64,000 bases of DNA. Source: Candidatus Kapaibacterium sp. GTDB lineage: Bacteria; Bacteroidota; Ignavibacteria; Kapaibacteriales; UBA2268. The position numbers were made by a program, and so were the translations under genes. The stretch spans positions 3,392,001 to 3,456,000 of the forward strand of contig OY761611.1 in assembly GCA_963664875.1 (NCBI GenBank), in the 5' to 3' direction. Below are positions 23,861-55,468 of the stretch, in pieces. The notes under the pieces are model-generated. The model was not told the origin of the DNA, did no database searches, and worked only from the letters and a program-made list of their open reading frames with translations. The number at the start of each line of letters is the position of its first letter. The stretch's first letter is position 1.

Positions 23861-23891
23861 CAAAACTTAATATTGCGATATTTCTTGTAGT

Positions 23892-34828: not shown

Positions 34829-34935
34829 CTTAGTAGTTGTAATAGTTCGGCTGATTTCAGGCGCATATAAAAAAAGCTCCGATACTTCATTGCTTAAATA
34901 TCGGAGCAAACATCATATAAGGAAATATTGAAACG

Positions 34936-35700
34936 CTATTTGAAATATGTATAATAAAAATCATATCGTTTTTGAATGGCACCTTTAGAATCCGAAATAA
35001 TTTCGGCTTTGAGTTTTCCGGTGGTGTCATAAATGTATGAGTATATTTTGTTTACATTGCCATTCTGATCTATTTTATAAAACTTTATAGATTGATCTGC
35101 AGAATAAACAATACTGTCTTTTAGTACATTTGCATTAGGAATGTTGTCGCCTGTGACTATAATATCATAAGATATCCCTGTCAAATTGCCCGAAGTATTA
35201 TATTCGTTGTTGTAGTTTTTGATAGTAGATACACCTTTCTTCAAGTCTTCCTGTACGGTTTTGATTAAATCACCCTTTTGGTTGTAATCGAAACTCCAGC
35301 TTTCTTCAAGCTCACCATCGCTGTCGTATTGCTTTTTCTCAACTATCTTCGAATTAGTGTATCGATACTTGATCTTGAAATTTTCAGATACAAAGCCGTT
35401 GTTGTCATATTTAAAGTGAATTTCAGTAGATTGGTCGTCTTGGTATGTGTAAACAGATTTTGTAGCTGTGTCTGCATCTTTGTTAAACTCTACAAAAAGC
35501 AGGATATTGCCGGCTTTGTCAAATTCTTTGTAATATACTTTGTGTTCTTTAGATAAAGTGAGCAAATCAGATTCCCACTTCTCTTCACTTTGTATAACAT
35601 CCGGAGTGTACGCAGGATTTATCGGATTGTCCGGCATATTACATGCTGCTAATAAACACACAGCACACACAAAAATACTATTTAATATTTGTTTACTCAT
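34936..35700 (-). CDS. Lipoprotein with YD-like beta-hairpin repeats
   Basis: Lipobox LAAC; repeated Y(D/N)xxG motifs. Confidence 0.6.
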   Translation of the reverse strand: MSKQILNSIFVCAVCLLAACNMPDNPINPAYTPDVIQSEEKWESDLLTLSKEHKVYYKEFDKAGNILLFVEFNKDADTATKSVYTYQDDQSTEIHFKYDNNGFVSENFKIKYRYTNSKIVEKKQYDSDGELEESWSFDYNQKGDLIKTVQEDLKKGVSTIKNYNNEYNTSGNLTGISYDIIVTGDNIPNANVLKDSIVYSADQSIKFYKIDQNGNVNKIYSYIYDTTGKLKAEIISDSKGAIQKRYDFYYTYFK

Positions 35701-35804: not shown

Positions 35805-36932
35805 TTATATATTAATGTCGAAATCATCTGCATTGAAACCGTAATTTTCTATCCAGTATTCTTTAGTAAAAGTTATTTTCCCGGAATTTAATAAATCAAG
35901 ATCGCGTTTCCAAATACTCGCCATATTGCTGTTTAACCTGATAATTGAAAAAATAGGCTGAGCAATATCTCCAAAATTTAGATGTATTAGCATTACTATC
36001 AAGTCGTTTAATATCTTTTCTACTAAGCTGATGTCCGAATGAATTATTTCTTCTCTCACTTTATAATGTGTTTCTGCTGCTGCTAACGAACCACCATCTA
36101 ATTCTGTGGTAAGTGTTTGAGACAATAGTGCTTTTGATATTTCCGAATTACAATGCCTGATTAGCAGGTGAAAGAGCTCCGCCGAATTTGCTTTATTCGT
36201 ATCGTGTATTGTGATTGTTATATCCTCAGGGGTTACTGCAACGCTTTCGTCAGCCATCTCGCTCAGTAACTCGGCAAGATTCATTATTTCTTCCTGTGAG
36301 GCACCTCTCTGATACTGTGCCACCACAAAAGGCATCCCAAATTTTTCAATATAATTTACCCAAAAACGCATACTACCGGATTTGAAAGTAACAGGCCAAA
36401 AGCATTTTGCAAGTAGCGATTCTCCATAATGCCTTGCTGCACTTTGTTCATATATCGCTGCAAGGAATTTATACTCGGGCAAGGATTGAGCCTCGCCACC
36501 GCCGGGACTTCTGAAATACATATTTCCATCGCCTCCAATGTCGAAATATTCCTGCGGTCGGGCTTCAATCTTCTTAGGAATATATTTTCCTTCTTTCTTT
36601 TCCCACATAATTTCTAAAACCTGAAATCCATAAAGAGGTGCGTCGAGTATGTTTCTTATTATAGCCTGCAAATCTAACTTTGCAAAAACATCTTTCACAA
36701 ATGCGAATACATCTTTGTCTGAATTTTCCTGCCTTATTTGAGTTTCTAAAGCAAGAACGCCTGCTTTTCTGGATTGGATGCAGCTACGGACGTGCGGATC
36801 ATTTGTAAGATTTCGTACAGCTTCATAGCCTTTGTTTCTTAGTATTTTATCGGGATTAGGCAGCATTCCGAGATGCTTAAAGAAGCTGAGCGAGCCACTC
36901 CTGCTTACAAGTTCTTTGGTTAGTGATTTCAT
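35805..36932 (-). CDS. Mu gp29-like portal protein (DUF935)
   Basis: LPNPD.IL, D.HV.SC..SRK, YGFQV.EI.W, W..YIEKFGMP, CN.EISK.LL.QTLTTE..GGS.AA..TH. Confidence 0.85.
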   Translation of the reverse strand: MKSLTKELVSRSGSLSFFKHLGMLPNPDKILRNKGYEAVRNLTNDPHVRSCIQSRKAGVLALETQIRQENSDKDVFAFVKDVFAKLDLQAIIRNILDAPLYGFQVLEIMWEKKEGKYIPKKIEARPQEYFDIGGDGNMYFRSPGGGEAQSLPEYKFLAAIYEQSAARHYGESLLAKCFWPVTFKSGSMRFWVNYIEKFGMPFVVAQYQRGASQEEIMNLAELLSEMADESVAVTPEDITITIHDTNKANSAELFHLLIRHCNSEISKALLSQTLTTELDGGSLAAAETHYKVREEIIHSDISLVEKILNDLIVMLIHLNFGDIAQPIFSIIRLNSNMASIWKRDLDLLNSGKITFTKEYWIENYGFNADDFDINI

Positions 36933-37367
36933 TTATTTCTCCATAGATTTGATTGCATAACCTGATATTATTCCACCCAAAATTATTAGCGGATCCTGCC
37001 ACCAAGGGCGTTTGGCTATTGATGATTGATTAAAATTGATGTGATGAGTAATTATAGTGTCCTGCTGTCTGGCTATATGCATTGATAAAATATTATCGGG
37101 GAAAGTATAATAACAGCGGACAGTGTCTCGTTTGATTATAGTATCTATTGTCGCAACGAAAGGTCTTGTTTGTATGATAGTATCTCTAATATAGCGGATT
37201 TCAGTTTTTACATTTTCTAGGATGATTGGCTCGGGAGTTACAATTTCAATAATGGTGTCTCTTATTATTCTTACATCACCTTGGTTCCCGGGCGGCTCAT
37301 TTGCAAATATGTAAAACAAAAGCAGACCTATTATTACACCGGCAAAAGCAATTGTTACCTCTTTCAT
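36933..37367 (-). CDS. Phage membrane protein, possible Rz/spanin-like lysis accessory
   Basis: N- and C-terminal hydrophobic segments, repeated xRDTI motifs; lies in the head/lysis operon; function inferred. Confidence 0.45.
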   Translation of the reverse strand: MKEVTIAFAGVIIGLLLFYIFANEPPGNQGDVRIIRDTIIEIVTPEPIILENVKTEIRYIRDTIIQTRPFVATIDTIIKRDTVRCYYTFPDNILSMHIARQQDTIITHHINFNQSSIAKRPWWQDPLIILGGIISGYAIKSMEK

Positions 37368-38116
37368 ATTTTAACTCCATAATCTATAACTATTCCAAGA
37401 GTAAGGTAGTGAGCCGGCAATTCGTTATCTTTAATAAGAAGTGAGAGTGTATCACCAGAATTCAACGGCATCTCTGTTACCGAAATCTCGCCACGACCAC
37501 GCAGGATATGCAAATCTTCATAAAGCATGGAATCATTCAAAAGCAAATCACAATAAAGACTATTTCCTTCTTTCAAAGAATAGTAGATAGATACAATCTT
37601 AGGTGAAATATCATTTGGCAGACAAGGGAATATATCCGGCAGACGTAACCTCTCACCGGACTGCAGATTTATTACTCCGTCATAAGTAAAATGACAAATC
37701 CTCTGCAAACGCACTTTCTTTTCAGACGGCATTAAAGCCTGAGCAGGAACATACTTCTTAGAATAACTATCGCTACTGTCTTCAATAAGTAAAACATCCT
37801 CCGGCTCAATCTCCGGCTTACTCTCAAAAGTAATAAAGTCGCCGGACAACCTGTTTAGCTGCCTAAGATTGTCAACATTGGTGAGTCCGATCTGCTCTTT
37901 AGTAACATTATGTAGATTGTTTGTATCAGTCAAATGTAGAGTAAGATTCGGATTTTTATACTCGTAAACCATATCATGGTGATGTTCCACATCTGCTTTT
38001 GAATCAAGTGCGTCTGCAAGGTCGCTTTGGCTAGACAAAACGCCTGTTATTTCGCCCCATTTCGAGATTATTTCCACTTCCTCGGATTGTGGATAAGGTA
38101 TGTATCTGATTGGCAT
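37364..38116 (-). CDS. Phage fibre-like virion protein
   Basis: WGEITG.LS.Q.DL..AL..KA...H.H and H..DTNN.H.VTK.QIGL.NVDN repeats typical of phage fibres. Confidence 0.6.
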   Translation of the reverse strand: MPIRYIPYPQSEEVEIISKWGEITGVLSSQSDLADALDSKADVEHHHDMVYEYKNPNLTLHLTDTNNLHNVTKEQIGLTNVDNLRQLNRLSGDFITFESKPEIEPEDVLLIEDSSDSYSKKYVPAQALMPSEKKVRLQRICHFTYDGVINLQSGERLRLPDIFPCLPNDISPKIVSIYYSLKEGNSLYCDLLLNDSMLYEDLHILRGRGEISVTEMPLNSGDTLSLLIKDNELPAHYLTLGIVIDYGVKI

Positions 38117-38117
38117 T

Positions 38118-38438
38118 TTATCGCTCCTCTAAGTATAAAACTGCATCTAAATTTCCGTTAGTAATACTGTTATTTATATATCGGATGCGGAAGAATTTAC
38201 TAACGCTGTTCAGTATTGCTATTTCTGCATTGCTACGGTTATTCGTGTTGTCCACATCAATCAATGCTCCCACAGAGAAAGAGAGGCGGTCATTGGAAAA
38301 CTCAATGGAAACTATACCATCAGGTGTGCCTTTTACTTCGCTCCAGCTAAGTTGAAGTGAAACAGCTATATATTTAGATTTACCACTGATATTTTTATCA
38401 GCTGTTTCAAACCACTTAGTCTCAAAAGATTCCGCCAT
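38118..38438 (-). CDS. Small hypothetical phage protein (beta-rich, possibly a virion protein)
   Basis: ATG 38438 avoids overlap with the upstream gene; stop abuts the next start. Confidence 0.5.
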   Translation of the reverse strand: MAESFETKWFETADKNISGKSKYIAVSLQLSWSEVKGTPDGIVSIEFSNDRLSFSVGALIDVDNTNNRSNAEIAILNSVSKFFRIRYINNSITNGNLDAVLYLEER

Positions 38439-38460
38439 TGAAGCATTTTTGCACATATAT

Positions 38461-39030
38461 TTAAGCATTATCCACCTCTGTGGAAAAGCCAACAAGCCCA
38501 AGCAACCGCAATCTCCCGAATATATGATACAAATTCCTTCTTTGCCTGAATACACCTTCTTTATTGCCTTTCTTTGTATTGAAAGCGATTGTGCGAACCC
38601 AGCCGGATCTTTCAGTTTTATATATCCTCTCAACATGACCTCGCCAGGAGCCGGGCAGTCGCCATATTATTAAATCATGTTTCTGTGGGGCAGCTCTTGT
38701 TCGCTTCCCATGTTTCTTTGCATAAGTAAAGAGTTTTGTAGCAACGCCTGTTTTAGGAATTGGAATATCACTTTTATCTTGCGCAGCTCGAGCAAAGCAA
38801 TAATATACTCCTGCTGCACAGTAAGCACTGCCCCTCGGCAAACCCATATAATCAGTGTATTTCTCAACTGCCCCGAGATTCTGGCCGCTTTCGAGCGTTC
38901 CTGCCTGTAACATTGCAGTATCAAGAGATGCTTCGAGTAGATATTGTTTACATGGAATTGTGTATCTCTCAAATGCAAAAGCGCTTGCAGAAAGCGTTAG
39001 CATTAATATTATTTTGAATAAGATTTTCAT
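38461..39030 (-). CDS. CHAP/NlpC-like peptidoglycan hydrolase with signal peptide (endolysin-like)
   Basis: E.GQN.G..VEKY, AYCAAGV (Cys), DL.IW......GHVE (His); signal peptide ending SAFA. Confidence 0.7.
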   Translation of the reverse strand: MKILFKIILMLTLSASAFAFERYTIPCKQYLLEASLDTAMLQAGTLESGQNLGAVEKYTDYMGLPRGSAYCAAGVYYCFARAAQDKSDIPIPKTGVATKLFTYAKKHGKRTRAAPQKHDLIIWRLPGSWRGHVERIYKTERSGWVRTIAFNTKKGNKEGVFRQRRNLYHIFGRLRLLGLVGFSTEVDNA

Positions 39031-39127
39031 AGTGTTTGTTCCTTCTTTGAATAGTAAAATTTTATTTGATAGACCTAATTAGGAAAAAGGTTTCGATTGT
39101 TTACTTTCTTCCATAGATATTATTTCA

Positions 39128-39230
39128 ATTTCCCCTCCTGAGCGATGTGCTGAGCGAGCAACGCGAGTCGAAGTAGGGTGCGTGAGCGAAGCGAGGGCGG
39201 GGTGGAAAAACACGAAGCACAATATTTAGT
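39128..39230. repeat. REP mosaic inside the phage-like operon
   Basis: tcccctcctgag[cgatgtgctgagcgagcaacgcgagtcgaagta]gggtgcgtgagcgaagcgagggcggggtgg; matches 42529 and 44771. Confidence 0.8.
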
Positions 39231-39317
39231 GCAAGTAGTCTGTTTTTCTATTTACTTAACTTTGTCGATTGTTTTTTTCAGGTCAGAGATATAAAAAACA
39301 TTATCATTTTTCTCTCC

Positions 39318-39641
39318 TTACTGCACAAAATAAACTCCCAATATTATCATGCCCACAGAGAGATGCACCCCCAGAGCCATTTGACCGAAATTTAAATCAG
39401 GAAGAAGTGCTTTGAGTAAGGATGCAGAGCGGTATATTAGCCAAAGGCAGAAAAGTTCTGCGAGTAGGACTATCAGCATGGTTTTTAGCTCTGCAAGACT
39501 TGGGAATGCAAAAAGTAGTAGCATTAGCCCAACGATAAGTAATAATATTTCTATCAGATATTCTCTGATTTTGCCCCAAAGAGACCGGGCGAGTTGCCCG
39601 ATCCCTACGGAGATGCTATTCAAGATATTTTTTAAATTCAT
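39318..39641 (-). CDS. Small multi-TM membrane protein, holin candidate
   Basis: About three hydrophobic segments; directly upstream of the lysin; function inferred. Confidence 0.5.
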   Translation of the reverse strand: MNLKNILNSISVGIGQLARSLWGKIREYLIEILLLIVGLMLLLFAFPSLAELKTMLIVLLAELFCLWLIYRSASLLKALLPDLNFGQMALGVHLSVGMIILGVYFVQ

Positions 39642-40065
39642 CGAGAGTCTCCTTGTCAAATGTGATTGTTTTGTTGTCTTTATTGCTGAGTATCAGGGAG
39701 GTTTCAGTTTCTTCTTCTATAATTATTTCTTTCTGTTTTGGCAAATCTACCTTGCATGCCTTAATGTCTCTAAGGAGCTGGAGTGCATTTAGCTTTCGCC
39801 ACACTACGGCATTGGGAACACCTGCGTCTGAATAGGCATAATCATATAAATATGCTATGGTCAGGTCAACCGAGAGCTTCTTTACAAGCATATCCGGGAG
39901 AGTCAGTGGCAACTCATAGCGAGAACCAATCATGCTATCAATGATGGAATCTGCATAGTCCCTATGTCTTTGGAGTTGTGCCTGATCGAAACCTCCACCG
40001 CAAAGTGTCGCAAGCTCCTGATAGGAATATTCGAGCAACAAATCATTTTCGTCTGAGTAAGGCAT
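39616..40065 (-). CDS. Mu gp36-like head completion/adaptor protein (DUF1320)
   Basis: MPY....DL......EL..L, A..IID..IG.RY.LPL, D..I..LY, AL..L.DI..G/C...L pattern. Confidence 0.8.
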   Translation of the reverse strand: MPYSDENDLLLEYSYQELATLCGGGFDQAQLQRHRDYADSIIDSMIGSRYELPLTLPDMLVKKLSVDLTIAYLYDYAYSDAGVPNAVVWRKLNALQLLRDIKACKVDLPKQKEIIIEEETETSLILSNKDNKTITFDKETLDEFKKYLE

Positions 40066-40075
40066 ATTAGCTCCT

Positions 40076-40417
40076 CTATATTGCTAAGCGAACTTTGATT
40101 ATTGCTGCGCCTGTACACGTACTAAGTGCATAAGCGTTCACAATCTCGCCTGCGTCTGCTACCTTTGCCTTTCCGGTTGCGTCGCTGCTTAGTGCATCGC
40201 CTCTTGCTATTGCTTCGCTTGATTCTACGAGCATTGTGCCGAGAGTTTCTATAGTTGCCTGCCTGTCTATGGTAGCAGCAAGTGATGTAACACCTAAAGC
40301 TCTTTCGCCAAGTCCGCAGATTCCACTTAAATAATTTACAAATCTAAACTGTGGTATGTCTTCTGCTGCCTTAATGCTGATAGTCAAAGCTGAGTGATAT
40401 GTTTCTGTACTAATCAT
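40076..40417 (-). CDS. Capsid decoration/cement protein (DUF2190-like)
   Basis: RFV, ALGV, G...VE..EAI..GD...SDA.GKA; follows the major capsid gene. Confidence 0.75.
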   Translation of the reverse strand: MISTETYHSALTISIKAAEDIPQFRFVNYLSGICGLGERALGVTSLAATIDRQATIETLGTMLVESSEAIARGDALSSDATGKAKVADAGEIVNAYALSTCTGAAIIKVRLAI

Positions 40418-40429
40418 TTGTCTGCCTCC

Positions 40430-41374
40430 CTATGCGTGGAAATTAGTGTTTGCGATTAAAAAGCCGGCATCTTTGCCTGTTACCTGTACTGAGTAGTTGT
40501 CTGTAGCACGAATTACTTTCACTTTGCCACCGTTTTCGTAGTAAGTATCTACTTCCGGCATTCCTTTTCTTCGGAATGTGTATCCAAACGAAGGGTTGTA
40601 TTCTGAGCGGCGAGGGGACTGATCTACATACGCGAATATTATATTATCGCCCCAAATGTCTTCCATACTTACTCCATCGGGTGAGTAAACTGAGGTGCCG
40701 ACTATAATATTTTCGATATTATAAACCTCTTTGACAAGCTCGGCATTTACTGTAAAATTATTTGTATAACGGATTTTGTTTGTCATACTATTGTGGTTCA
40801 GTATTTTTCTCAGAGTAACATCGCCCATAATCATAACATTCGGATATTTTCCTATTTTGCTGCGTATGGCATCTTTTGCTATATTGACCCATGTTTCAGT
40901 GTCCGCATTGCTTGTTGGAGCATATATCGAATCTGCCTCTGAGCTGATTACCAGTTTCATATCATCATCGTAGTTGGCAGGGTTTTGTACTAAATCTGCC
41001 GCCGCCTTTTCTCTGCCGGTTAGAAGTATATCGAGAAGTTCCTTTGTGCTGCGCTGTTCATAGCGGAAAAACTCGCTGCTTTCTTCTTCTTCGAGATAGT
41101 CCAAAGCTATCTCTACATCTCTTTCGTGTGTCTCGAAATCCATTAATACAATTTCTTCAGGAGGTATGCGGTTGGAGGCAGCTCTCAAAGCTCGCTCTGT
41201 GTCTCGCATTACAAAAGAGTTTTTAGAAAAAACAGGGATTTTGCCTTTCATTTTATTTACATCGACAGTAGGGAAGAGCTTATGAGCTATGAAAGCATTA
41301 TTTGTATAGCCCTGAGCTATTGTGGTCAAAACGGGATCGACCATGCGAAGAGAATCTAATCTTGTGTTGGACAT
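40430..41374 (-). CDS. Major capsid protein (Mu-like/transposable-phage type, HK97 fold inferred)
   Basis: VDPVLT.IA.GY.N..FIA..LFP.V.V....GK, E..AA......NY, IWG, PSFGYT; sits between protease and cement genes. Confidence 0.8.
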   Translation of the reverse strand: MSNTRLDSLRMVDPVLTTIAQGYTNNAFIAHKLFPTVDVNKMKGKIPVFSKNSFVMRDTERALRAASNRIPPEEIVLMDFETHERDVEIALDYLEEEESSEFFRYEQRSTKELLDILLTGREKAAADLVQNPANYDDDMKLVISSEADSIYAPTSNADTETWVNIAKDAIRSKIGKYPNVMIMGDVTLRKILNHNSMTNKIRYTNNFTVNAELVKEVYNIENIIVGTSVYSPDGVSMEDIWGDNIIFAYVDQSPRRSEYNPSFGYTFRRKGMPEVDTYYENGGKVKVIRATDNYSVQVTGKDAGFLIANTNFHA

Positions 41375-41389
41375 TATTTTGTTTCCTTG

Positions 41390-42235
41390 TTAAAATGTGT
41401 AATTTGTTGCGGAAAGGATTACTGCCTCCTCGTAGCTGAGAGAAGCGTCTTGCGTTTGTAGAGCTTTTGCCTGTCTGTGCAAATCGAGCCTTTCGGGAAG
41501 AACATCTGCATCGTCAAATTCATCGTTATATGATTTAGTAAAGTCAAATTGTATATCAACTTTATCCGGTTTGATAGAGCTGAACATATTTCGGGTGTGT
41601 TCGAGCAAATCTGTTTCGTTCTTTTTGTCATATTGAAAAACAAGCTCGAGCAAGTCCTCGACAACAGTACGATGAGCCGGATTAATCTTAAGCCCCTGAT
41701 TAATATCAGTAAGCGACTCGGCAAAAGCTGCGAACTCACGTCTTCGCATATTAAGCTCTAAGCCTTCGATTTGCTCACGCAATTCCATATTTTCGCGCTC
41801 TGCCTCAGAAAATTGGCTACCCTCAAGCTCCACTTCCGAATATTCAGTTATATCAGAAAACTGCACAGGTTGCAAACCCTTCACCGCCGGAGAGGCAGCT
41901 CCCAAAAAGCCCACATGACGCAAAAGCATATCAGGGTAAAGAGCGATAGACACCTTTTTGTATCTACCACGCCTGATTTCTTCGGCAAACTCCGCATTCA
42001 TATCTTTAACTTTAGCGAGAAGAGTATCATTTCTGCGAGCAAGTCGCGCTACCCAGCCATAAGCCGGTGAGTCAGTTTTGGGATGTCCTTTGACTATCGG
42101 AGCAAGAAAAGCATCGCTACTTTCCGTCCGTGAATTGTAAGCATAAGCGATAGCATCTAAGCTGCCTGCGTTATACTCTTTAGTGTTGCCGGCAGAGTCA
42201 GTATGCCGACCGGTTTTAAAAACTTCTATCCACAT
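41390..42235 (-). CDS. Mu gpI-like prohead protease/scaffold
   Basis: IEVFKTG.H, APIV.GHP...PAYGWV, Y.K.S..LY, LRHVGFLGA..PAVKGL; coiled-coil C-terminus; ATG 42235. Confidence 0.85.
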   Translation of the reverse strand: MWIEVFKTGRHTDSAGNTKEYNAGSLDAIAYAYNSRTESSDAFLAPIVKGHPKTDSPAYGWVARLARRNDTLLAKVKDMNAEFAEEIRRGRYKKVSIALYPDMLLRHVGFLGAASPAVKGLQPVQFSDITEYSEVELEGSQFSEAERENMELREQIEGLELNMRRREFAAFAESLTDINQGLKINPAHRTVVEDLLELVFQYDKKNETDLLEHTRNMFSSIKPDKVDIQFDFTKSYNDEFDDADVLPERLDLHRQAKALQTQDASLSYEEAVILSATNYTF

Positions 42236-42469
42236 AAATATGTACCTTGTAAATGATAAAAAATGAGCTGCAGCTTTTATTTCAAATACAAAGTACATTT
42301 TACTCAGACTATAAAAAGAAAAGCATTTTTAAAATATTTTATAAACCATTTAAAAAATAAATAGTGAGCAAATCAAAATATTAAGTATAATATTTAATAC
42401 AATACGAACACAAGAGTTGTAAATTTGTACTATAGAAGATAGATAATCACTTAGTAATTTGTTGCAAAA

Positions 42470-42880
42470 AAGAGCCTGAAAGGCTCAAAGCAAATAGCAA
42501 AAGTCTTATTGCAAAGAATAAAAAAAATTCCCCTCTTGAGCGATGTGCTGAGCGAGCACAGCGAGTCGAAGTAGGGTGCCCTGAAAGGGCGGGGTGGAAA
42601 AGAACCTTATATCTACCACTACTCTAAAAAATATATCGCCGAAGTTATTTATATAGAAAACATACTGCATACTCTGAAAATTTGTGCTTCGTGTGTTTCC
42701 ACCCCGCCTCACCTTCGGTGAGCCACCCCTCAAGAGGGGAATGGTGAGGGTTTTGGCTCAAAATATTAGAGAAAGAGCCTGAAAGGCTCAAAACAATTAG
42801 CCCGGGGCAGCGCCCCGGGAAAAGAAACGTCCACACCCTCGTTTTCTATACCGAGCTAAGCGAGGTGAGTGGCGAAAACA
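42470..42880. repeat. Large REP mosaic
   Basis: Two gagcctgaaaggctc, cccggggcagcgccccggg and a tcccctcttgag...caagagggga inverted pair; 42586-42725 recurs at 44802-44940 and 42472-42578 recurs at 46428-46534. Confidence 0.85.
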
Positions 42881-42918: not shown

Positions 42919-44766
42919 ATGAAACAACTTATACTATTTATCTTACTCGTGCCGGTGCTGCTAAATGCCGAACTCTATGAAGGCTCTGACTCATTAAAGC
43001 CTAAAAAGGAATATACATATAAAGCAAAAGGTGGTTTAGATATTGACCCTAATCTACTTGAGGACTTAATTCCTGACGACCCTCGAATAAAGTTTGCTAC
43101 TTATTTCTGTGGTTCAGGTGGAGATGCTGTTATGGATTTACAAATTGACTCTGAAGGAAATATATTAGCTATTGGAAATACTATGAGTGACGATTTGCCA
43201 ATGGTTGGTAACTCTTTTGCCACTGATAAAGGAATTTGGATAGATGCTTTTATTGTCAAATTTGACACGTTGGGTTTCCCTATTTGGAGTACATATTTTG
43301 GAGGCAAAGGAGAAGACAGAGGTATTAGATTAGAAGTAGATTCGAAGGATAATATTATTATTGCAGGCGCTACTAATTCTGCAAATTTTCCTCTAAAAGG
43401 AGAATTTGACCAAGACAGTATAAAAGGCGAAGCTGATATTTACATAGCAAAATTTGATAAAGACGGAAACTTGCTTTGGAGTAGATTGTTTGGTGGCAGT
43501 GGATTAGATCAGTCTTTTGGTCTTGCAATTGATGCTGATGATAACATATATGTTGCCGGTAATACTATGAGTACAGATATTGTCAGAAGCGACTGGACTT
43601 ACCAGCCTGAATATGCTTATTATTATAAAAATTTTGCAACATATTCTGATGGAGTGTTTGCAAAATTCAGTCCAAGTGGCAAACATATTTGGTCAAGTTA
43701 TTTGGGTGCTGGAGAAACAGAACACTTAGAAGACATCGATGTTTATAATGATGAAATTACTGTTGTAGGCAGAGTTTCTGCAAATTTTGCACATCCTAAA
43801 ATTAATCCAAGATATATTCGCGGAACTGAAGACGCTATTCAACAAGTACCTTGTGATACATTTTATTATGAAAACTACACACCTTACGATCCATTTATAG
43901 CAAAATTTTCAACCGACAGTTGTAAGCTTAAATACTTTACGTATTACTGTACTGAGGCTAAAAGATTTAATCCAAGTGATAATTATTATTATTTTTCCGA
44001 TTATGATGCAAGAGGCAACTATATATTAGTAATTAATGCTGACAACTTCATGCAAGTCAAAGGTTCTCCTTTTAAGACATATAACGAAAAAGAAATTGGA
44101 GGGGTTATGATGCTTTCTCTTAGTCAAGAAAATATAGCCAATTGGGATTGGGACATTTGTGCTGGACGTGGATTTACAGATGTAGCTTTTCATATTGATA
44201 ATAATATTTTTTGGGGGGATGTCACAGCATACAAAGATCTCTTTCCGGAAGATGATAGACATATTAATAATAGAGAAAGTGCTATTCAAAGATCACCTTT
44301 GTTTATGAGATTTGACTTAAAAAACTACACTCAATGGTATTCTTACCATCCTCACTTTAATGCAGATTCTAAACTTATATCAAAAGATAATATTGTTTAC
44401 CTTATGGCGAGATCCCATGATTACCATATTCTTAAAAATGCTTATTCAGAACAATATTATCCTTATTCTTTATATTTTATGAATTTTGATATGAGAGAAG
44501 ATTTTGGTTACTCAAGTATTGAGACAGGGACTAATTATAGCTCAAATATCTATGTTTATCCTACAATAGCTATGGAATCTATCACTATATCCTCAGAGGA
44601 TTCCATAAATCAAATTCAAATCTATGATTTACTCGGTAAGCAATTATATTCACAAGATTTGAAACTCCCATTAAACGAGTTAGAAATAAATGTAGAGAAC
44701 TATGCAGACGGAATGTACTTCATTCTGTTAAATAATAAATACTTTTTTAAATTTATTAAGGAGTAA
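42919..44766 (+). CDS. Secreted SBBP/beta-propeller protein with T9SS C-terminal domain
   Basis: Signal peptide; repeated W.TY.GG.G.D...D..GN.YIAG.T.S units; VYPT...IYDLLGK...GMYF...KFIKE tail. Confidence 0.8.
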   Translation: MKQLILFILLVPVLLNAELYEGSDSLKPKKEYTYKAKGGLDIDPNLLEDLIPDDPRIKFATYFCGSGGDAVMDLQIDSEGNILAIGNTMSDDLPMVGNSFATDKGIWIDAFIVKFDTLGFPIWSTYFGGKGEDRGIRLEVDSKDNIIIAGATNSANFPLKGEFDQDSIKGEADIYIAKFDKDGNLLWSRLFGGSGLDQSFGLAIDADDNIYVAGNTMSTDIVRSDWTYQPEYAYYYKNFATYSDGVFAKFSPSGKHIWSSYLGAGETEHLEDIDVYNDEITVVGRVSANFAHPKINPRYIRGTEDAIQQVPCDTFYYENYTPYDPFIAKFSTDSCKLKYFTYYCTEAKRFNPSDNYYYFSDYDARGNYILVINADNFMQVKGSPFKTYNEKEIGGVMMLSLSQENIANWDWDICAGRGFTDVAFHIDNNIFWGDVTAYKDLFPEDDRHINNRESAIQRSPLFMRFDLKNYTQWYSYHPHFNADSKLISKDNIVYLMARSHDYHILKNAYSEQYYPYSLYFMNFDMREDFGYSSIETGTNYSSNIYVYPTIAMESITISSEDSINQIQIYDLLGKQLYSQDLKLPLNELEINVENYADGMYFILLNNKYFFKFIKE

Positions 44767-45072: not shown

Positions 45073-46404
45073 ATGCAAAAAATTCTAATACTAATATTTC
45101 TAACACTTGTATTTCCCGACAAGGAAGCATATAGCCAAACAGAAGATGTTGTGTGGCTAAAAGAAAATTTCTATTTGGAAGAGTTTAAATTCCATCCTAC
45201 TCAGGATATTTTTACTTCTTTCAATCAGTATTGGAAGGGTTTAAAAATATTTGATAAAATGACAGGTGATTCGATTGGTATGTTTCCTATGGGCGACTCG
45301 GTAAGAGGGCTGCAATATACTTTTAATACGGACGGCTCTTTGCTGGCTAGTTTCAGTTGTCCTGGTGTCATTCGTTTATGGAATTTTGAAACGAAGGAAC
45401 AAATGATTGAGTCAAGCATTGAATATTTACTTGATGCAGATTTAAAGAAGAATTTCTATGTTGGCTCTATCGATATATCTAATGATAATAAATATATTGC
45501 ACTTGGACTTTTTGGAGCTGGTTTTGTAGTATTTGATATTGAAAAAAATAAAGTTATAAAACATCAGTATTGGGAATATGATCATCCCAAATGGGGAAAA
45601 TCATTTATGGGAAGTGACTACGTAGAAATTAGTCCGGATAATAATTTAGTATTAGTTATTAGAAACCCGGCAGACAATATGCCTCAAATGATATTTTTAT
45701 ATAATATCAAAAAAAACAAAACAGAATATTTTGATATGGGATCGCATGCGATATTTTCTCCTACAGATAATGTCATGTATTATTTTAGAGATGCTTATGA
45801 TGATCAAACAGGAGAAGTGAAAAGTCTTGGTAGGTATTACGTAAATTTTGATATCAGTGATGAACCTATCAAAAGCCCTGCTAGTTTGTCAGATTGTGTT
45901 TTCTCCTTTGATGGAAAATTTATTGTTGTAAGATCAAAAATGTATTATGAAAGCATATTCTATCAACCTTACATATATAAAACTGATGATTTGTATAACT
46001 TTGCTTACAAAAGACCTTTTAATGATGTGTTCAAAATTGGAAGATGTATTTTAGATTACTCAAACAATTTTATATTGGGTGGTTCAAATCAAGGATTAGC
46101 TTTGTTAGATTTAAAAGGTGTGTTAACTTCAGCCAAAGAGGATATTAATGATAGCATAAAAATATTCCCAAATCCTGCAAATAAAACCATAACAATAAAA
46201 ACATATATAGAACATACCGGTTTACTCAAAATTGAAATTCAGAATATAGATGCTTCCATAAATCAGACTTTAAAAAAAGAAATTGTAGAAGTAGGTGAAT
46301 ATTCAGAAGAATTTGATATTAGTGCGATGCCACAAGGTACTTACTTCATTACTCTTGAGTTTTCAGGTCAAACAGAGAGTAGAAAAATTGTGGTGGTGAG
46401 GTAG
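45073..46404 (+). CDS. WD40-like beta-propeller T9SS cargo protein, copy 1
   Basis: Signal peptide; FHP/FNTDG/ISPDN/FSP repeats; FPNPA...GTYF...KIVVVR. Confidence 0.8.
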   Translation: MQKILILIFLTLVFPDKEAYSQTEDVVWLKENFYLEEFKFHPTQDIFTSFNQYWKGLKIFDKMTGDSIGMFPMGDSVRGLQYTFNTDGSLLASFSCPGVIRLWNFETKEQMIESSIEYLLDADLKKNFYVGSIDISNDNKYIALGLFGAGFVVFDIEKNKVIKHQYWEYDHPKWGKSFMGSDYVEISPDNNLVLVIRNPADNMPQMIFLYNIKKNKTEYFDMGSHAIFSPTDNVMYYFRDAYDDQTGEVKSLGRYYVNFDISDEPIKSPASLSDCVFSFDGKFIVVRSKMYYESIFYQPYIYKTDDLYNFAYKRPFNDVFKIGRCILDYSNNFILGGSNQGLALLDLKGVLTSAKEDINDSIKIFPNPANKTITIKTYIEHTGLLKIEIQNIDASINQTLKKEIVEVGEYSEEFDISAMPQGTYFITLEFSGQTESRKIVVVR

Positions 46405-46789: not shown

Positions 46790-48121
46790 ATGCAAAAAAT
46801 TCTAATACTAATATTTCTAACACTTGTATTTCCCGCCAAGGAAGCATATAGCCAAACTGAAGATGTTGTGTGGCTTAAAGAGGGAGTTAATTTGAATGAG
46901 TTTAAATTCCATCCTACTCAGGATATTTTTACTTCCTTCAATGAGTATTGGAAGGGGTTAAAAATATTTGATAAAATGACTGGGGATTCTATAGGAATGT
47001 TTCCTATGGGCGACTCGGTAAGAGGGCTGCAATATACTTTTAATACGGACGGCTCTTTGCTGGCTAGTTTCAGTTGTCCTGGTGTCATTCGTTTATGGAA
47101 TTTTGAAACGAAGGAACAAATGATTGAGTCAAGCATTGAATATTTACTTGATGCAGATTTAAAGAAGAATTTCTATGTTGGCTCTATCGATATATCTAAT
47201 GATAATAAATATATTGCACTTGGACTTTTTGGAGCTGGTTTTGTAGTATTTGATATTGAAAAAAATAAAGTTATAAAACATCAGTATTGGGAATATGATC
47301 ATCCCAAATGGGGAAAATCATTTATGGGAAGTGACTACGTAGAAATTAGTCCGGATAATAATTTAGTATTAGTTATTAGAAACCCGGCAGACAATATGCC
47401 TCAAATGATATTTTTATATAATATCAAAAAAAACAAAACAGAATATTTTGATATGGGATCGCATGCGATATTTTCTCCTACAGATAATGTCATGTATTAT
47501 TTTAGAGATGCTTATGATGATCAAACAGGAGAAGTGAAAAGTCTTGGTAGGTATTACGTAAATTTTGATATCAGTGATGAACCTATCAAAAGCCCTGCTA
47601 GTTTGTCAGATTGTGTTTTCTCCTTTGATGGAAAATTTATTGTTGTAAGATCAAAAATGTATTATGAAAACATATTCTATCGACCTTACATATACAAAAC
47701 TGATGATTTGCATCACTTTGCATACAAAAGACCTTATAATGATGTTTTTACAATCGGAAGATGTATTTTAGATTACTCAAACAATTTTATATTAGGTGGT
47801 TCAAATCAAGGATTAGCATTATTAGATTTAAAAGGTGTTTTAACTTCAGCCAAAGAAGATGCTAATGATAGCATAAAAGTATTCCCAAATCCTGCAAATA
47901 AAACCATAACAATAAAAACAGATATAGAACATACCGGTTTACTCAAAATTGAAATTCAGAATATAGATGCTTCCATAAATCAGACTTTAAAAAAAGAAAT
48001 TGTAGAAGCAGGTGAATATTCAGAAGAATTTGATATTAGTGCGCTGCCACAAGGTACTTACTTCATTACTATTGAGTTTTCAGGTCAAACAGAAAGTAGA
48101 AAAATTGTGGTGGTGAGGTAG
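46790..48121 (+). CDS. WD40-like beta-propeller T9SS cargo protein, copy 2 (tandem paralogue)
   Basis: Same length (443 aa) and near-identical to copy 1, including the upstream leader. Confidence 0.85.
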   Translation: MQKILILIFLTLVFPAKEAYSQTEDVVWLKEGVNLNEFKFHPTQDIFTSFNEYWKGLKIFDKMTGDSIGMFPMGDSVRGLQYTFNTDGSLLASFSCPGVIRLWNFETKEQMIESSIEYLLDADLKKNFYVGSIDISNDNKYIALGLFGAGFVVFDIEKNKVIKHQYWEYDHPKWGKSFMGSDYVEISPDNNLVLVIRNPADNMPQMIFLYNIKKNKTEYFDMGSHAIFSPTDNVMYYFRDAYDDQTGEVKSLGRYYVNFDISDEPIKSPASLSDCVFSFDGKFIVVRSKMYYENIFYRPYIYKTDDLHHFAYKRPYNDVFTIGRCILDYSNNFILGGSNQGLALLDLKGVLTSAKEDANDSIKVFPNPANKTITIKTDIEHTGLLKIEIQNIDASINQTLKKEIVEAGEYSEEFDISALPQGTYFITIEFSGQTESRKIVVVR

Positions 48122-50045: not shown

Positions 50046-50119
50046 TACGCCAGAAAGGATTCGAACCTTTGGCCTACAGCTTAGAAGGCTGTTGCTCTAT
50101 CCAGCTGAGCTACTGGCGC
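50046..50119 (-). tRNA. tRNA-Arg (anticodon TCT), CCA not encoded
   Basis: GCGCCAGTAGCTCAGCTGGATAGAGCAACAGCCTTCTAAGCTGTAGGCCAAAGGTTCGAATCCTTTCTGGCGTA folds as a cloverleaf. Confidence 0.97.
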
Positions 50120-50246: not shown

Positions 50247-50341
50247 GGTCAAGCCCTTTGTGGTTAAGTCAAACCCAATCCCGCCAGGTCCGGAAGGAAG
50301 CAACGGTAAGTTTCGTCTTAAGGCACAAAGTAAGCTTGGCT
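50247..50341 (+). ncRNA. ffs: Signal recognition particle RNA (4.5S)
   Basis: Helix-8 motif cccgccaggtccggaaggaagcaacggt inside a long hairpin (ggtcaagc...gcttggct), then a T run. Confidence 0.92.
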
Positions 50342-50517
50342 TTTTTTTTATATTTACAAACCTAACAAATAAATCCCCAATTTAATAAAGTAAATCCCCA
50401 ACTTTATCAAGCAAATTCCTCAAAATATCATCGGCAATAATAGCACAGATAAAAAATTTGCTATATTGCAAACAAATCTCAACTTGAAAGATTATTTGGA
50501 AAAGATAAGAAAATCAG

Positions 50518-50722
50518 TCGGCAAGGAACTCGATCGAGAAAGCGAACTGGGCGACCACGGCGTACGTAAAGTAGATTACGGGCTGGGCAGGTTTACTACT
50601 ATAGATCTAAGGTCACTGAGCGAGCGCAGCGAGTCGAAGTGTGGGAGAAATACTACGCATGGTCTCCGTACCAGTATAGTATGAATAATCCGGTGAGTTT
50701 GGCGGATTGGAATGGGAAGGAT
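50518..50722 (+). repeat. RHS core C-terminal header 1 (frameshifted by an insert at 50608-50640)
   Basis: GKELDRESELGDHGVRKVDYGLGRFTTID / WEKYYAWSPYQYSMNNPV..DWNGK. Confidence 0.85.
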
Positions 50723-51304
50723 TTTAAATTGCTTCCTAACTCTACTACCAATATGCTACTTGCACAAAACAATAATACCACTATTGCAACTTTTACGCAT
50801 TTTAATGGGATTCAACAAACTAATTGGAATACAATTATGAATAACCAAATTACTAAATGGCAAAGTTACGCTCCAAAAGTTGCAAAATTTGCTACTGAAA
50901 ATGATATTAGTGTGATGTCAGCTGCTAGTTTTAAAAAAGAATATTCCAATCAAGTTGCTGCTCTAAATCCAAATACTGGAATGCTGGAAGTTAAGTTTCC
51001 TGAAGAAAATGAAGACAATACATTGGAGCAAGATTTACTCCATGAAACTGTTCATGTTATGGGGTATAGTGAATATGCTGCATGGTCAGTTGATTTAGCT
51101 TTGGGGAATGTAGACAAAGATACTTTTCTATATAATTTGAAAAAGAATGAAAGTTTTAGGAATGATTATATTTTTGGAAATCATGAAGCATACAAAGATA
51201 ATAGTATAGTTACCTCACAAAGAAATAATCTAAAAAATGGTAAAATAACTTATGAACAGCTTGTTCAACAAATGGTTGAATATGGGAACAGTATAATAAA
51301 ATGA
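50639..51304 (+). CDS. Orphan RHS toxin tip 1, HExxH zincin-like
   Basis: Follows the DxxG cleavage motif; LLHETVH...EY.A. Confidence 0.65.
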   Translation: MWEKYYAWSPYQYSMNNPVSLADWNGKDFKLLPNSTTNMLLAQNNNTTIATFTHFNGIQQTNWNTIMNNQITKWQSYAPKVAKFATENDISVMSAASFKKEYSNQVAALNPNTGMLEVKFPEENEDNTLEQDLLHETVHVMGYSEYAAWSVDLALGNVDKDTFLYNLKKNESFRNDYIFGNHEAYKDNSIVTSQRNNLKNGKITYEQLVQQMVEYGNSIIK

Positions 51305-51981: not shown

Positions 51982-51983
51982 CC

Positions 51984-55442: not shown

Positions 55443-55468
55443 CATACTTAAAATAATTAGGATAAAAT

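Follow-up and report, generated by a model that had tools for sequence, protein, structure and literature searches.

Encapsulins put a shell protein of the HK97 fold at the service of the cell, and are not known to have portal, maturation protease or scaffold, adaptor, terminase or lysis genes. Capsid-forming satellites of the cf-PICI type carry, in a small gene set, a capsid, portal, protease and adaptor of their own, and are not known to encode a tail; they also have an integrase, a small terminase and functions for regulation and replication, and are mobile and patchily distributed. In gene transfer agents (GTAs; viriforms), of which RcGTA of Rhodobacter and related agents are examples, structural genes of phage origin have become a fixed part of a bacterial lineage and are kept under purifying selection (general properties are summarised in PMC12946183, PMC9662315 and PMC5026251). 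George et al. (2022) described head-only GTA clusters in endosymbionts of the Rickettsiales and Holosporaceae; these keep head or capsid and portal genes without a tail, lineage-wide, under purifying selection and with no known function (PMC9254644).

The locus considered here lies in a window of 64,000 nucleotides (the whole stretch analysed) from Candidatus Kapaibacterium sp. Its family is of the Ignavibacteria/Kapaibacteria type, and related records carry the name Ignavibacteriota or Candidatus Kapaibacterium. On the minus strand, from 42235 to 35805, ten intact, co-oriented and uninterrupted open reading frames (ORFs) follow each other in the order protease/scaffold, MCP, cement, gp36, holin-like, CHAP, jellyroll, fibre, 144-aa membrane protein and portal. 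A sequence-only reading had proposed this arrangement, portal last, and all ten ORFs were confirmed. It had also called them tightly packed, which holds (overlaps or gaps of at most 15 nt) with the sole exception of a 287-nt gap at 39031–39317. The features are:

42236..42345, minus strand: upstream (promoter/5′ leader) block, with invariant blocks in an alignment of four species of the genus
41390..42235, minus strand: protease/scaffold (phrog_976, 4.8e-54)
40430..41374, minus strand: major capsid protein, MCP (phrog_1005, 3.9e-83)
40076..40417, minus strand: capsid cement/decoration protein (PF09956 Phage_cement_2, 6.9e-10; phrog_673, 4.4e-21)
39616..40065, minus strand: head–tail adaptor, Mu gp36 type (PF07030, 2.9e-14; phrog_195, 4.5e-17)
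39318..39659, minus strand: holin-like membrane protein (hydropathy scan, about three hydrophobic segments)
39031..39317, unstranded: intra-operon gap holding one copy of a REP/MITE-like short repeat that is dispersed in the genome (families D1 and I1)
38461..39030, minus strand: secreted CHAP peptidoglycan hydrolase, endolysin-like (PF05257, 2.5e-5, a match below the Pfam cut-off)
38118..38468, minus strand: 116-aa jellyroll protein (AlphaFold model)
37364..38116, minus strand: fibre, receptor-binding type (PHROG tail-fibre families, 1.8e-7 to 5e-6)
36933..37367, minus strand: 144-aa membrane protein (alignment of 30 sequences and hydropathy)
35805..36932, minus strand: Mu-type portal, short form (PF06074, 6.9e-87)
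34936..35700, minus strand: lipoprotein (lipobox-type N-terminus)
34876..34907, minus strand: terminator-like hairpin (12-bp stem, then a T run)

The phage origin of this operon is certain. It shares with the heads of Mu, BcepMu and phiE255 the Portal_Mu protein, the gpI-type protease, the gpT-type capsid, cement and gp36; unlike Mu-like phages, the system has yielded no gp30/Mu F, small terminase (TerS), neck, tail, integrase or transposition genes. As in GTAs, phage-derived structural genes appear fixed in a lineage under purifying selection, replication, integration and lysogeny genes are missing, more than one locus is involved, fibres evolve fast and release – here predicted from the genes – would use a holin and an endolysin. 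It differs from RcGTA in its Mu-type head (versus an HK97/RcGTA-type siphovirus origin), its host family from the FCB group (versus Alphaproteobacteria), its C-terminally shortened portal, the tail and small terminase genes not found, and in that particle production, random packaging and transfer are here predictions. The likeness to the head-only clusters resides in a head and portal without tail, lineage-wide and under purifying selection; those clusters are, however, a reduced alphaproteobacterial cluster of RcGTA type in obligate symbionts (PMC9254644), whereas we deal here with free-living-type genomes of 2–5 Mb, a probable independent Mu-type domestication, own lysis genes and fibre, and an unlinked terminase. 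The integrase, regulatory and replication genes, small terminase, mobility and patchiness of cf-PICI-type satellites were not found, and, unlike encapsulins, the system has portal, protease/scaffold, adaptor, terminase and lysis genes. We found no description of this family-wide Mu-type head system in the literature. It is probably a Mu-type head and lysis operon fixed in the chromosome of the family's ancestor and kept by selection as a host function. The whole is best read as an independently domesticated, multi-locus, apparently tailless, putatively DNA-packaging, GTA-like particle system.

The protease is a head maturation protease of the Mu gpI type, with its scaffold part at the C-terminus. 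Its ORF runs to 42298, and the start conserved in orthologues is M22, at 42235, as had been assumed, giving 281 aa; orthologues measure 264–390 aa versus 395–440 aa in prophages of the family. Across 30 sequences, His72, Ser117 and His128 each show a conservation of 93% or more, and they presumably form its catalytic triad. The MCP, of the Mu gpT type, is 41–43% identical to the capsid proteins of BcepMu and phiE255; it was present in 22 of 24 family genomes, and none of 16 genomes sampled in the rest of the order had it. Cement and gp36 were found in 28 and 29 of 31 loci from other family genomes. The portal match to PF06074 spans the entire profile, and its residues 44–319 align with residues 70–354 of a solved Mu-type portal chain of 526 aa (solved Mu-type portals have 512–526 aa); yet about 115–130 C-terminal residues are missing. 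Five domesticated portals inspected in a 34-sequence alignment end at columns 432–442, while two prophage portals reach columns 567–575, and orthologues in the 31 loci all have 316–418 aa. In other phages the missing region is a DNA gauge.

Within the family, 121 of 130 genomes have the portal, as do 92 of the 100 that are of high quality; counted by genus, it is 52 of 55. It usually occurs as a single copy and always in the short form, at about 320–450 aa; the best match per genome is a short open frame with 40–53% identity (70–77% within the genus). Sporadic true prophages of the family have the long form (464–536 aa). Other families of the class gave a portal match in 10 of 145 genomes, none above 35% identity and most of them long-form: outside the family, portal matches are prophage-like only. 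The same gene order recurs in the 31 loci (11 plus 20), so that the operon, for which a check of synteny had been suggested, is present in close and distant relatives. In the family's Mu-type prophages (L025, L026), which like the operon have a CHAP-type lysin within the structural module, the set TerS–TerL–portal (489–506 aa)–gp30 is transcribed divergently from protease (395–440 aa)–MCP and the following genes; the operon, by contrast, ends with a shortened portal, has a shorter protease/scaffold and is not linked to TerL. Flanks are made of housekeeping genes in the window and in five other genera, six in all; in the window they are host-type, as the sequence-only reading had stated, and the roughly 9 kb to each side contain neither integrase nor transposase nor repressor genes. 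These flanks, and the different arrangement of the family's real Mu-type prophages, show that the operon is no fragment of a recent prophage.

A decaying prophage remnant without function could be proposed from the certain phage origin and from what is missing: several typical head genes (Mu F, small terminase) and the entire tail set. This explanation is close to refuted already: ORFs are intact and of conserved length in 31 loci at 30–55% identity, the portal persists in nearly all the genomes counted above, the catalytic residues of TerL, CHAP and protease are conserved, and dN lies far below a saturated dS. Evolution is indeed non-neutral, with dN/dS of 0.037–0.243 in the 34 of 72 pairs where it was computable, dS being saturated in the remaining ones. 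Absence from relatives, neutral evolution or identity with a fragment of a recent prophage, named beforehand as contrary outcomes, were thus not observed.

Congruence with the host tree, which the sequence-only reading had suggested testing, is only partial. Five of 11 splits are common to the RpoB tree and that of the system, a number reached by none of 5000 label permutations; yet the AU test rejects the RpoB topology for the capsid and TerL data (p = 2.6e-5), and in an 11-taxon set each of the three kinds of data (head, TerL, RpoB) rejects the trees of the other two, so that strict congruence is rejected. One might then think of a family-specific mobile element, a mini-Mu-like or satellite-like cassette moved by a helper and spread horizontally, not vertically. 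The rejected host topology would fit, and so would the chromosomal site, which varies from genus to genus and in part among species of the genus, and the composition: GC is 40.3% in the operon versus 36.2% in the genome (only 1.3% of windows of equal size are as high), and GC3 of four operon genes falls in the 97th–99th percentile, which is unexpected for an old resident unless codon selection is behind it. Nevertheless, we consider this scenario very unlikely. There is one short-form copy per genome across the 52 genera; MCP identity falls with taxonomic rank, from 78–82% within the genus to 45–56% across the family; no integrase or transposase adjoins the operon in six genera; and no close relative was found in the viral contig collection. 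Sequences flanking the operon in the relatives correspond to dispersed regions of the window genome, so low synteny is a general feature and not peculiar to the operon block.

The limits of the block also speak against such an element. Nucleotide homology between species of the genus starts 60–124 nt upstream of the operon start and stops 18–69 nt past the stop codon of the lipoprotein gene, the conserved block extending to this gene and the terminator-like hairpin: it spans exactly promoter to terminator. A repeat scan found no inverted-repeat arms at its ends, and no target duplication was seen by eye. The upstream blocks are invariant among four species of the genus, whereas synonymous sites in the genes are saturated; they hold an invariant palindrome, GCTGCAGC, about 35 nt before the start codon of the protease. 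In the genus, three other species have loci that reach far enough, and in all three the lipoprotein gene follows the portal (56–60% identity); it was not found next to the operon in the loci compared outside the genus.

The sequence-only reading had noted the absence of a terminase and proposed to look for one elsewhere. None is present in the window, indeed, but an intact lone large terminase (TerL) lies about 312 kb from the operon (G000:C1:3745611–3747038 of the window genome), surrounded by host genes; it displays Terminase_6N and 6C domains and is assigned to phrog_38. Of the 24 family genomes sampled, 23 have it, and it is intact in 14 of 14 loci examined. In 13 sequences, including one prophage TerL, Walker A PPRHGKSE, Walker B DD, the TRW motif and the nuclease residues D314, E373 and D442/D443/D446 are invariant. 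Next to TerL lies a GT2 gene, an arrangement kept throughout the genus and also in a second one, and this separate locus is a further difficulty for a mobile cassette. TerL directly follows the portal in one genus (G007), and the operon of G001 adjoins orthologues of two genes located after TerL in the window genome, which points to former linkage. The coupling is not absolute: G057, G077 and G143 (96–97% complete) have the TerL orthologue with no match for MCP and portal, and G008 (97% complete) has MCP and portal with no match for TerL. Tail loci standing alone, also proposed, did not turn up: PF04984, PF10145, PF04233, PF04865 and PF06841, searched for tail and Mu F, gave 0 matches in the complete window genome. 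There, proteins of two related prophages match only the operon and TerL, bar one lysin/lipoprotein whose C-terminal domain matches two other places.

A domesticated capsid might also serve the host without gene transfer, as a portal-bearing compartment or as a released particle not meant for gene delivery, for example in programmed lysis with release of protected DNA (biofilm, nutrients) or in interaction with surfaces or hosts, a role put forward for the head-only GTA clusters of endosymbionts in the Alphaproteobacteria. The missing tail genes and truncated portal would suit such a function, as would the head-only clusters of Rickettsiales and Holosporaceae, which are under purifying selection and have no known function (PMC9254644). 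We give it a slim chance, since the co-conserved TerL with its invariant ATPase and nuclease motifs argues for DNA packaging, and the modular turnover of a receptor-binding-type fibre for recognition of cell surfaces. The earlier alternative of a Mu-derived GTA-like or tailless capsid/nanocompartment system is supported in its GTA-like, tailless half; portal and catalytically intact terminase make the nanocompartment the less likely one.

The holin-like protein (113 aa), with no family match in Pfam/PHROG-type profile searches, was recognisable in 21 of 31 loci, always directly ahead of the CHAP gene; topology and position make it a putative holin. The CHAP protein, found in 30 loci, starts with a hydrophobic signal-like segment, and its Cys71 and His132 are conserved in 32 sequences, one prophage homologue among them. 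Next comes a protein initially taken for a 172-aa ORF; the actual gene encodes 116 aa, with orthologues of 112–126 aa in 24 of 26 cases (26 of 31 loci). Its AlphaFold model (pLDDT 93.4) resembles in VIA-align XepA (Z 11.0), the BPP-1 jellyroll cement protein (Z 10.8), YomS (Z 9.9) and a Carin1 capsid chain (Z 9.4), and in BFVD many small uncharacterised phage proteins (TM 0.63–0.73); it may be either a second capsid decoration/cement protein or XepA/YomS-like. The compact locus L081 keeps it, while tblastn found there no homologue of the holin-like, CHAP, fibre or 144-aa proteins. In the fibre, residues 31–89 match PHROG tail-fibre families; this N-terminal anchor is conserved in 13 of 31 loci and the C-terminal beta-sandwich head is variable. 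Length ranges from 250 to 701 aa, two genera have a Laminin_G_3 lectin domain, and dN (0.36–0.49) is the highest within the operon: the protein is fast-evolving and modular, with rapid turnover of the tip, whose domain resembles jellyroll/C1q-like fibre tips (model pLDDT 67). Finally, the 144-aa protein, found in 30 of 31 loci and always directly ahead of the portal, has an N-terminal transmembrane segment, repeated DT(I/V) strands and a hydrophobic C-terminus after WW(E/Q). Its Atlas neighbours are uncharacterised viral clusters, and position suggests that it may be spanin-like.

The adaptor raises a further question, since gp36 is the docking point for neck and tail. Retained in nearly all loci though tail genes were not found, it could betray a helper-dependent or anti-phage capsid system: either capsids of the module take their tails from the family's Mu-type phages, whether infecting or induced, much as capsid-forming satellites do, or they act as decoys that divert phage tails or DNA while the cell is lysed early, in abortive interference. 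Own lysis genes and the sporadic presence in the family of same-Mu-type prophages with long-form portals would agree with it. Taken jointly, these variants have a small but appreciable chance of being right. The window genome, with a single portal and a single MCP, has no resident helper; the window gp36 had no match in two prophage loci at E 1e-3, which makes present-day compatibility doubtful; PADLOC matched no family to any of 12 proteins; the flanks lack satellite-type integrase, replication and small-terminase genes; and a decoy does not need a rapidly changing fibre.

To return to the GTA-like particle, we would picture its making as follows. A host-controlled promoter would let a subset of cells make procapsids from short portal, protease/scaffold and capsid protein. 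The unlinked, co-conserved TerL would fill them by a sequence-independent headful-type cut, proposed with the small terminase absent and the gauge region of the portal missing. Cement, and possibly the 116-aa protein, would stabilise the shell; gp36 would close the portal and the fibre would then be attached. The holin-like protein, CHAP hydrolase and 144-aa protein would lyse the producer, setting free fibre-bearing particles without a tail of their own. Particle formation, host DNA as cargo and GTA-like action on other cells are what we infer from the gene content; with no tail genes found, this reading leaves DNA entry into the recipient unexplained. A near-universal intact operon and a separate TerL nevertheless suggest that these bacteria use a virus-derived particle for their own purpose.

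A last observation concerns the gap between the CHAP and holin-like genes, 287 nt long in the window, whereas three congeneric species have only 34–105 nt there. Through repeat families D1 and I1 the gap is paired with 42525–42728, and its repeat has 22 blastn matches in the genome. Such an element inside the operon could affect downstream expression in the window genome.

The sequence-only reading of this stretch had described a co-oriented head and lysis gene set, and we confirm it: ORF calling finds ten uninterrupted reading frames in the same orientation on the minus strand (window 42298-35805), profile searches match seven of them, and the flanking genes are of host type. From one end of the operon to the other, the genes are the following.

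From 42235, minus strand: head maturation protease/scaffold of the Mu gpI type (phrog_976, 4.8e-54)
Minus strand: major capsid protein (MCP) of the Mu gpT type (phrog_1005, 3.9e-83), 41-43% identical to that of BcepMu/phiE255
Minus strand: cement protein (PF09956, 6.9e-10)
Minus strand: gp36 adaptor (PF07030, 2.9e-14)
Minus strand: holin-like protein of 113 aa, with about three hydrophobic segments (hydropathy)
Minus strand: CHAP hydrolase (PF05257, 2.5e-5, under Pfam's cut-off)
38118-38468, minus strand: small protein of 116 aa
Minus strand: fibre, whose N-terminus matches tail-fibre PHROGs (1.8e-7 and weaker)
Minus strand: membrane protein of 144 aa, with an N-terminal transmembrane segment and a hydrophobic C-terminus (hydropathy)
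Ending at 35805, minus strand: Mu-type portal, last gene of the operon (PF06074, 6.9e-87)

A Mu-type head module is present with its portal, gpI-type protease/scaffold, gpT-type MCP and gp36. Pfam and PHROG profiles gave no family for the 113-aa, 116-aa and 144-aa proteins. Comparison with orthologues sets the start of the protease at M22 (42235), within an ORF that extends to 42298, and amends one detail of the earlier description: the small protein does exist, at 116 aa, and is not the 172-aa ORF. The genes overlap or sit at most 15 nt apart, with the sole exception of a 287-nt gap (39031-39317). His72, Ser117 and His128 of the protease, as well as Cys71 and His132 of the CHAP protein, are conserved in alignments of 30-34 sequences that include prophage homologues. 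Besides this conserved Cys/His pair, the CHAP protein has a signal-like N-terminus. The 144-aa protein is devoid of a lipobox and matches no known spanin family. Topology and position within the operon suggest holin, endolysin and spanin roles for the three putative lysis genes.

The portal had been noticed to come last, and it does, unlike the canonical order terminase-portal-gp30(F)-protease-capsid. The terminase itself is 312 kb away. Its absence had been claimed; this stands for the window and fails for the genome, where the search for a stand-alone enzyme met with success. An intact large terminase gene (TerL) lies outside the window, ~312 kb from the operon, at G000:C1:3745611-3747038 of the window genome (L029:9612-11039 in the locus cut around it). 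It codes for 475 aa with Terminase_6N and 6C domains (phrog_38), and its neighbours are genes for a glycosyltransferase, an aminotransferase, a peptidase and other host proteins. An orthologue is found in 23 of 24 genomes of the bacterial family, with identities of 66-68% inside the genus and, for most of the family, 40-50%, and the gene is intact in all 14 loci examined. Among 13 sequences, prophage TerL included, the Walker A (PPRHGKSE), Walker B (DD) and TRW motifs are invariant, and so are the acidic residues of the nuclease, D314, E373 and D442/D443/D446.

In one relative, G007, the TerL gene sits directly 3' of the portal gene. In another, G001, the genes ahead of the head operon are orthologous to the aminotransferase (IV) and M49 peptidase genes that lie downstream of TerL in the window genome. 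Because the operon of G001 adjoins orthologues of the genes downstream of TerL, the two loci may once have been neighbours. The link between them is not absolute. Among nine family genomes without a portal match, four have a TerL orthologue, four have none and one has a weak partial match; G057, G077 and G143, at 96-97% completeness, keep the TerL orthologue with no match to MCP or portal, while G008 matches MCP and portal and has no match to TerL. Either assembly gaps or genuine uncoupling would account for these four genomes. Lineages without head genes and TerL alike include genus g46, G079 and G104.

The rest of the phage was sought in the complete genome. Five Pfam families for tail proteins and Mu F, namely Phage_sheath_1 (PF04984), PhageMin_Tail (PF10145), Phage_Mu_F (PF04233), Baseplate_J (PF04865) and Phage_T4_gp19 (PF06841), had no match there. 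Two loci of the same family that resemble Mu-type prophages, L025 and L026, provided further queries. By tblastn against the window genome, their proteins match the operon, TerL and, at two sites, a C-terminal lipoprotein-like domain, and nothing else: their tail-region proteins have no homologue outside the operon, and neither the two gp30 (Mu F) proteins nor the candidates for a small terminase (TerS) have a match. The earlier remark that tail and gp30 genes are missing is thus upheld for these five families and for the proteins of these two prophages, and a tail of a novel type may exist beyond their reach. Clustering of ORFs in 14 TerL loci gave no conserved neighbour of TerL except a GT2 gene, shared by the genus and one other genus; in G007, TerL is followed by small ORFs, one a lipoprotein gene and the other unconserved.

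Conservation among relatives speaks against a fragment of a recent prophage. The window genome, complete in a single contig of 3.83 Mb, holds one copy of the portal gene and one of the MCP gene. The MCP is found in 22 of 24 sampled genomes of the family and in none of 16 genomes from other families of the order. Genomes of the genus match at 78-82% identity, and across the family the best match per genome is at 45-56% (in G006 there is just a prophage-type match at 31%). A family-wide census detects the portal in 121 of 130 genomes (92 of the 100 of high quality), spread over 52 of 55 genera. The best match in each genome is a short open frame (~320-450 aa from stop to stop, 40-53% identity outside the genus); extra, weaker matches (~29-41% identity), present in some genomes only, are mostly long (464-536 aa). 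At the level of the class, 10 of 145 genomes outside the family have a portal match, never above 35% identity and mostly of the long form.

L025 and L026 show what the long form belongs to. Their genes for TerS, TerL, a portal of 489-506 aa and gp30/Mu F are divergent from a head unit that comprises a protease of 395-440 aa, MCP, cement protein and gp36, followed by small genes, a CHAP-type lysin and fibre-like genes. The family thus harbours the likely ancestral type of phage alongside a resident form that is distinct and shortened. The family-wide short form, set against the long-form prophage loci, bears out the view that the operon is no fragment of a recent prophage. In this family a short portal marks the resident copy and a long one the true prophages; more generally, screens for conservation can tell domesticated capsid modules apart from the debris of prophages. 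As side observations, the CHAP-type lysin is embedded among structural genes in both loci (G004:C2:336300-356200 for L025, G006:C25:4100-24000 for L026), and a ParB-methyltransferase fusion adjoins TerS in L025. The same short arrangement (protease-MCP-cement-...-CHAP-portal, ~41% identity) also occurs in L049, on a contig labelled as an uncultured Hyphomicrobiales MAG; either the binning or the label is at fault, or the arrangement extends beyond the family. A scan of a viral contig collection with the MCP pattern gave no match, and 12 proteins submitted to PADLOC matched none of its defence families.

The order of genes is conserved as well as their presence. When the ten proteins were compared by tblastn with 20-kb loci of relatives, three species of the genus had all ten genes in the same order together with a downstream lipoprotein gene, and eight other genera had the same order with 7-10 of the ten genes detected; the order is kept in 17 of 20 further loci. 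Over the 31 loci the portal is matched everywhere, with lengths of 316-418 aa. The CHAP protein and the 144-aa protein are each matched in 30/31, gp36 in 29/31, MCP and cement protein each in 28/31, the protease in 27/31, the 116-aa protein in 26/31, the holin-like protein in 21/31 and the N-terminus of the fibre in 13/31. Some loci are incomplete or interrupted: L092, L097 and L098 have the part from gp36 to portal alone, L018 misses what follows the holin-like gene and has a portal fragment nearby, and in L046 ~8 kb separates the protease from the MCP.

The surroundings are host genes. In the window, genes for beta-propeller proteins sorted by the type 9 secretion system (T9SS), a STAS protein, proline dehydrogenase, a histidine kinase and similar host functions flank it, and the annotation of the window agrees with the statement that no integrase, transposase or repressor is near. 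The chromosomal site differs among five other genera examined, where the flanks are housekeeping genes, including those for citrate synthase, malate dehydrogenase, MraW, dCTP deaminase, LolA, FolB and a TonB-dependent receptor. Low synteny is general here, since genes that flank the operon in relatives have their counterparts dispersed over the window genome. Nucleotide homology within the genus begins 60-124 nt 5' of the protease start and ends 18-69 nt past the stop of the lipoprotein gene, so that the conserved block spans promoter to terminator. Four species share a conserved block of ~110 nt 5' of the operon, in which a GCTGCAGC palindrome is invariant, despite saturated synonymous sites. 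Rfam has no riboswitch in the operon region, and a scan for sigma-70-type promoters was uninformative (32 sites vs 24 expected). A repeat search gave no inverted-repeat arms at the ends of the conserved block (AT-rich inverted pairs are located elsewhere), and no target duplication is visible by eye at these ends in alignments of species of the genus.

Copies of a short GC-rich repeat, of a REP/MITE-like kind, are scattered over the genome. The holin-like and CHAP genes of the operon have one between them (39031-39317, 22 blastn matches), and a cluster lies upstream of the operon (42480-42860, 54 matches). In three other species of the genus the gap matching 39031-39317 is just 34-105 nt.

The operon has a GC content of 40.3%, vs 36.2% for the genome, a value reached by 1.3% of windows of equal size. 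In GC3 the protease, MCP, gp36 and holin-like genes stand at the 97th-99th percentile of long ORFs, and TerL at the 91st. Selection on codon usage is reported for the GTA genes of alphaproteobacteria (PMC9765227).

Neutral drift would speak for a relic, and the genes are not drifting. Of 72 comparisons of gene pairs within the genus, 38 have a saturated dS; the remaining 34 give a dN/dS of 0.037-0.243, where rpoB has 0.036-0.048. The expectation of non-neutral evolution is therefore vindicated wherever the ratio could be computed (0.04-0.24). The fibre has the highest dN of the operon, 0.36-0.49. Congruence with the host tree is partial, and the comparison extends to one host marker and 11-14 taxa. 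A tree of 14 taxa built on protease, MCP, cement, gp36, portal and TerL shares 5 of 11 splits with that of RpoB alone, a number reached by none of 5000 label permutations, and monophyly of the genus holds. In the AU test, by contrast, the head and TerL data of the 14 taxa reject the RpoB topology (p = 2.6e-5); in a set of 11 taxa, which has many weakly supported branches at depth and a single long one, each of the three data sets (head, TerL and RpoB) rejects the topologies of the other two. Distribution, copy number and identities scaled with taxonomic rank support descent with the host, and some exchange may have taken place within the family.

Three proteins deserve a comment. The model of the 116-aa protein is a jellyroll sandwich (pLDDT 93.4). 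VIA-align places it nearest to XepA of PBSX (Z 11.0), followed by the jellyroll cement protein of Bordetella phage BPP-1 (Z 10.8) and YomS (Z 9.9), then by capsid-associated chains of phages Carin1, VP1, KHP40 and 7-7-1 (Z 8.0-9.4). Many small uncharacterised proteins of phages match it in BFVD, and Foldseek found nothing in the PDB at E <= 0.001. What VIA-align and BFVD point to is a common jellyroll fold, which does not settle its role. The compact locus L081 keeps this protein, with no tblastn homologue there of the holin-like, CHAP, fibre and 144-aa proteins. It is probably associated with the capsid. The fibre combines a conserved N-terminal anchor with a replaceable C-terminal part, for 250-701 aa overall; in two genera it carries lectin-type Laminin_G_3 domains, and a model of moderate confidence (pLDDT 67) ends in a C-terminal beta-sandwich that resembles fibre tips. 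The short portal covers the whole Pfam profile, and aligns just to residues 70-354 of solved Mu-type portals of 512-526 aa. Five domesticated portals end at alignment columns 432-442, while two prophage portals run to 567-575. The C-termini of portals form the crown, thought to gauge packaged DNA (PMC11821841); the part missing here would be this crown.

We conclude that this is a real, unusually well-conserved and independently domesticated Mu-type head and lysis operon with an unlinked terminase, and its gene content and conservation are matters of observation. The account that follows, of particles, of the cargo they carry and of their action on other cells, we infer from the genes. Expression of the operon would be under host control, capsids would assemble on the short portal, and the lone TerL would package DNA irrespective of its sequence; gp36 would then close the filled capsid, with the fibre attached, and lysis by holin and CHAP protein would free tailless, fibre-bearing particles filled with DNA. 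The full proposal goes further, and we hold it as tentative, with the chances rather against it. It would be an independently evolved, Mu-derived tailless particle for gene transfer or DNA export, the first in FCB/Bacteroidota-related lineages, in which a crownless portal and a lone TerL without its small subunit pack host DNA into small capsids, lectin-type fibres that evolve fast direct these to kin, and uptake depends on the recipient and not on a tail.

Known systems offer partial likenesses. GTAs (viriforms) package random host DNA, less than their own gene set needs, and deliver it to recipients. The present system resembles them in that phage-derived structural genes are fixed in a host lineage under purifying selection and split over loci, with no genes for replication, integration or lysogeny found; it differs in that a complete head-tail particle was not recovered with the queries used, and for this reason we do not file it as a GTA. 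Encapsulins are HK97-fold shells without portal, terminase or protease/scaffold, and the joint presence of portal, protease, adaptor and TerL excludes them. Phage satellites (PICI and cf-PICI) have an integrase, att sites, genes for replication and regulation and a small terminase, and are patchy and mobile. The flanks in six genera show no integrase, att site, replication or regulation gene or small terminase, and an operon that occurs in 52 of 55 genera, as a block bounded by promoter and terminator, is not patchy; we reject a satellite on both counts. Our comparison sets it apart from tailocins too. To our knowledge, phage domestications that give DNA-carrying particles are few and mostly alphaproteobacterial, and the functional ones all have tails. 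The nearest architectural parallel is in the head-only GTA clusters of Rickettsiales and Holosporaceae (PMC9254644), which derive from the RcGTA lineage, whereas the present system comes from a Mu-type head. In the literature covered, which leaves aside supplements and subscription journals, no such system is described for these bacteria.

Were this reading true, it would represent a separate domestication, from a different type of phage (a Mu-like head), in a poorly studied environmental and wastewater family. The gene set is minimal, about 11 genes and one unlinked terminase, with no recognisable tail. Should particles form, they would provide a compact model for the minimal requirements of capsid-mediated DNA export, as well as for the measuring of DNA by a shortened portal and a terminase without small subunit, and in these communities they would constitute a route, so far unrecognised, for gene flow or programmed lysis. 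The draw of the system is there: a minimal tail-less gene set, an unstudied lineage, and a function that clear experiments can decide.

Other features of the window may be recorded. A gene for a T9SS-sorted protein (42919-44766) is directly upstream of the operon, followed by two tandem 443-aa paralogues (45073-46404 and 46790-48121) that combine a WD40-like propeller with a C-terminal T9SS sorting domain. A protein of 1968 aa with many WD40 repeats (18238-24144) adjoins a T9SS-sorted VWA/Ig-like protein of 1342 aa (14076-18104). Seven co-oriented ORFs of 152-273 aa at 50639-55927 have no Pfam match, and a gene for an IS200-like transposase (Y1_Tnp) lies at 60991-61443, ~19 kb from the operon. 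Rfam places a cobalamin riboswitch at 25740-25927 (minus strand), a tRNA at 50046-50119 (minus strand) and a small SRP RNA at 50247-50344 (plus strand).
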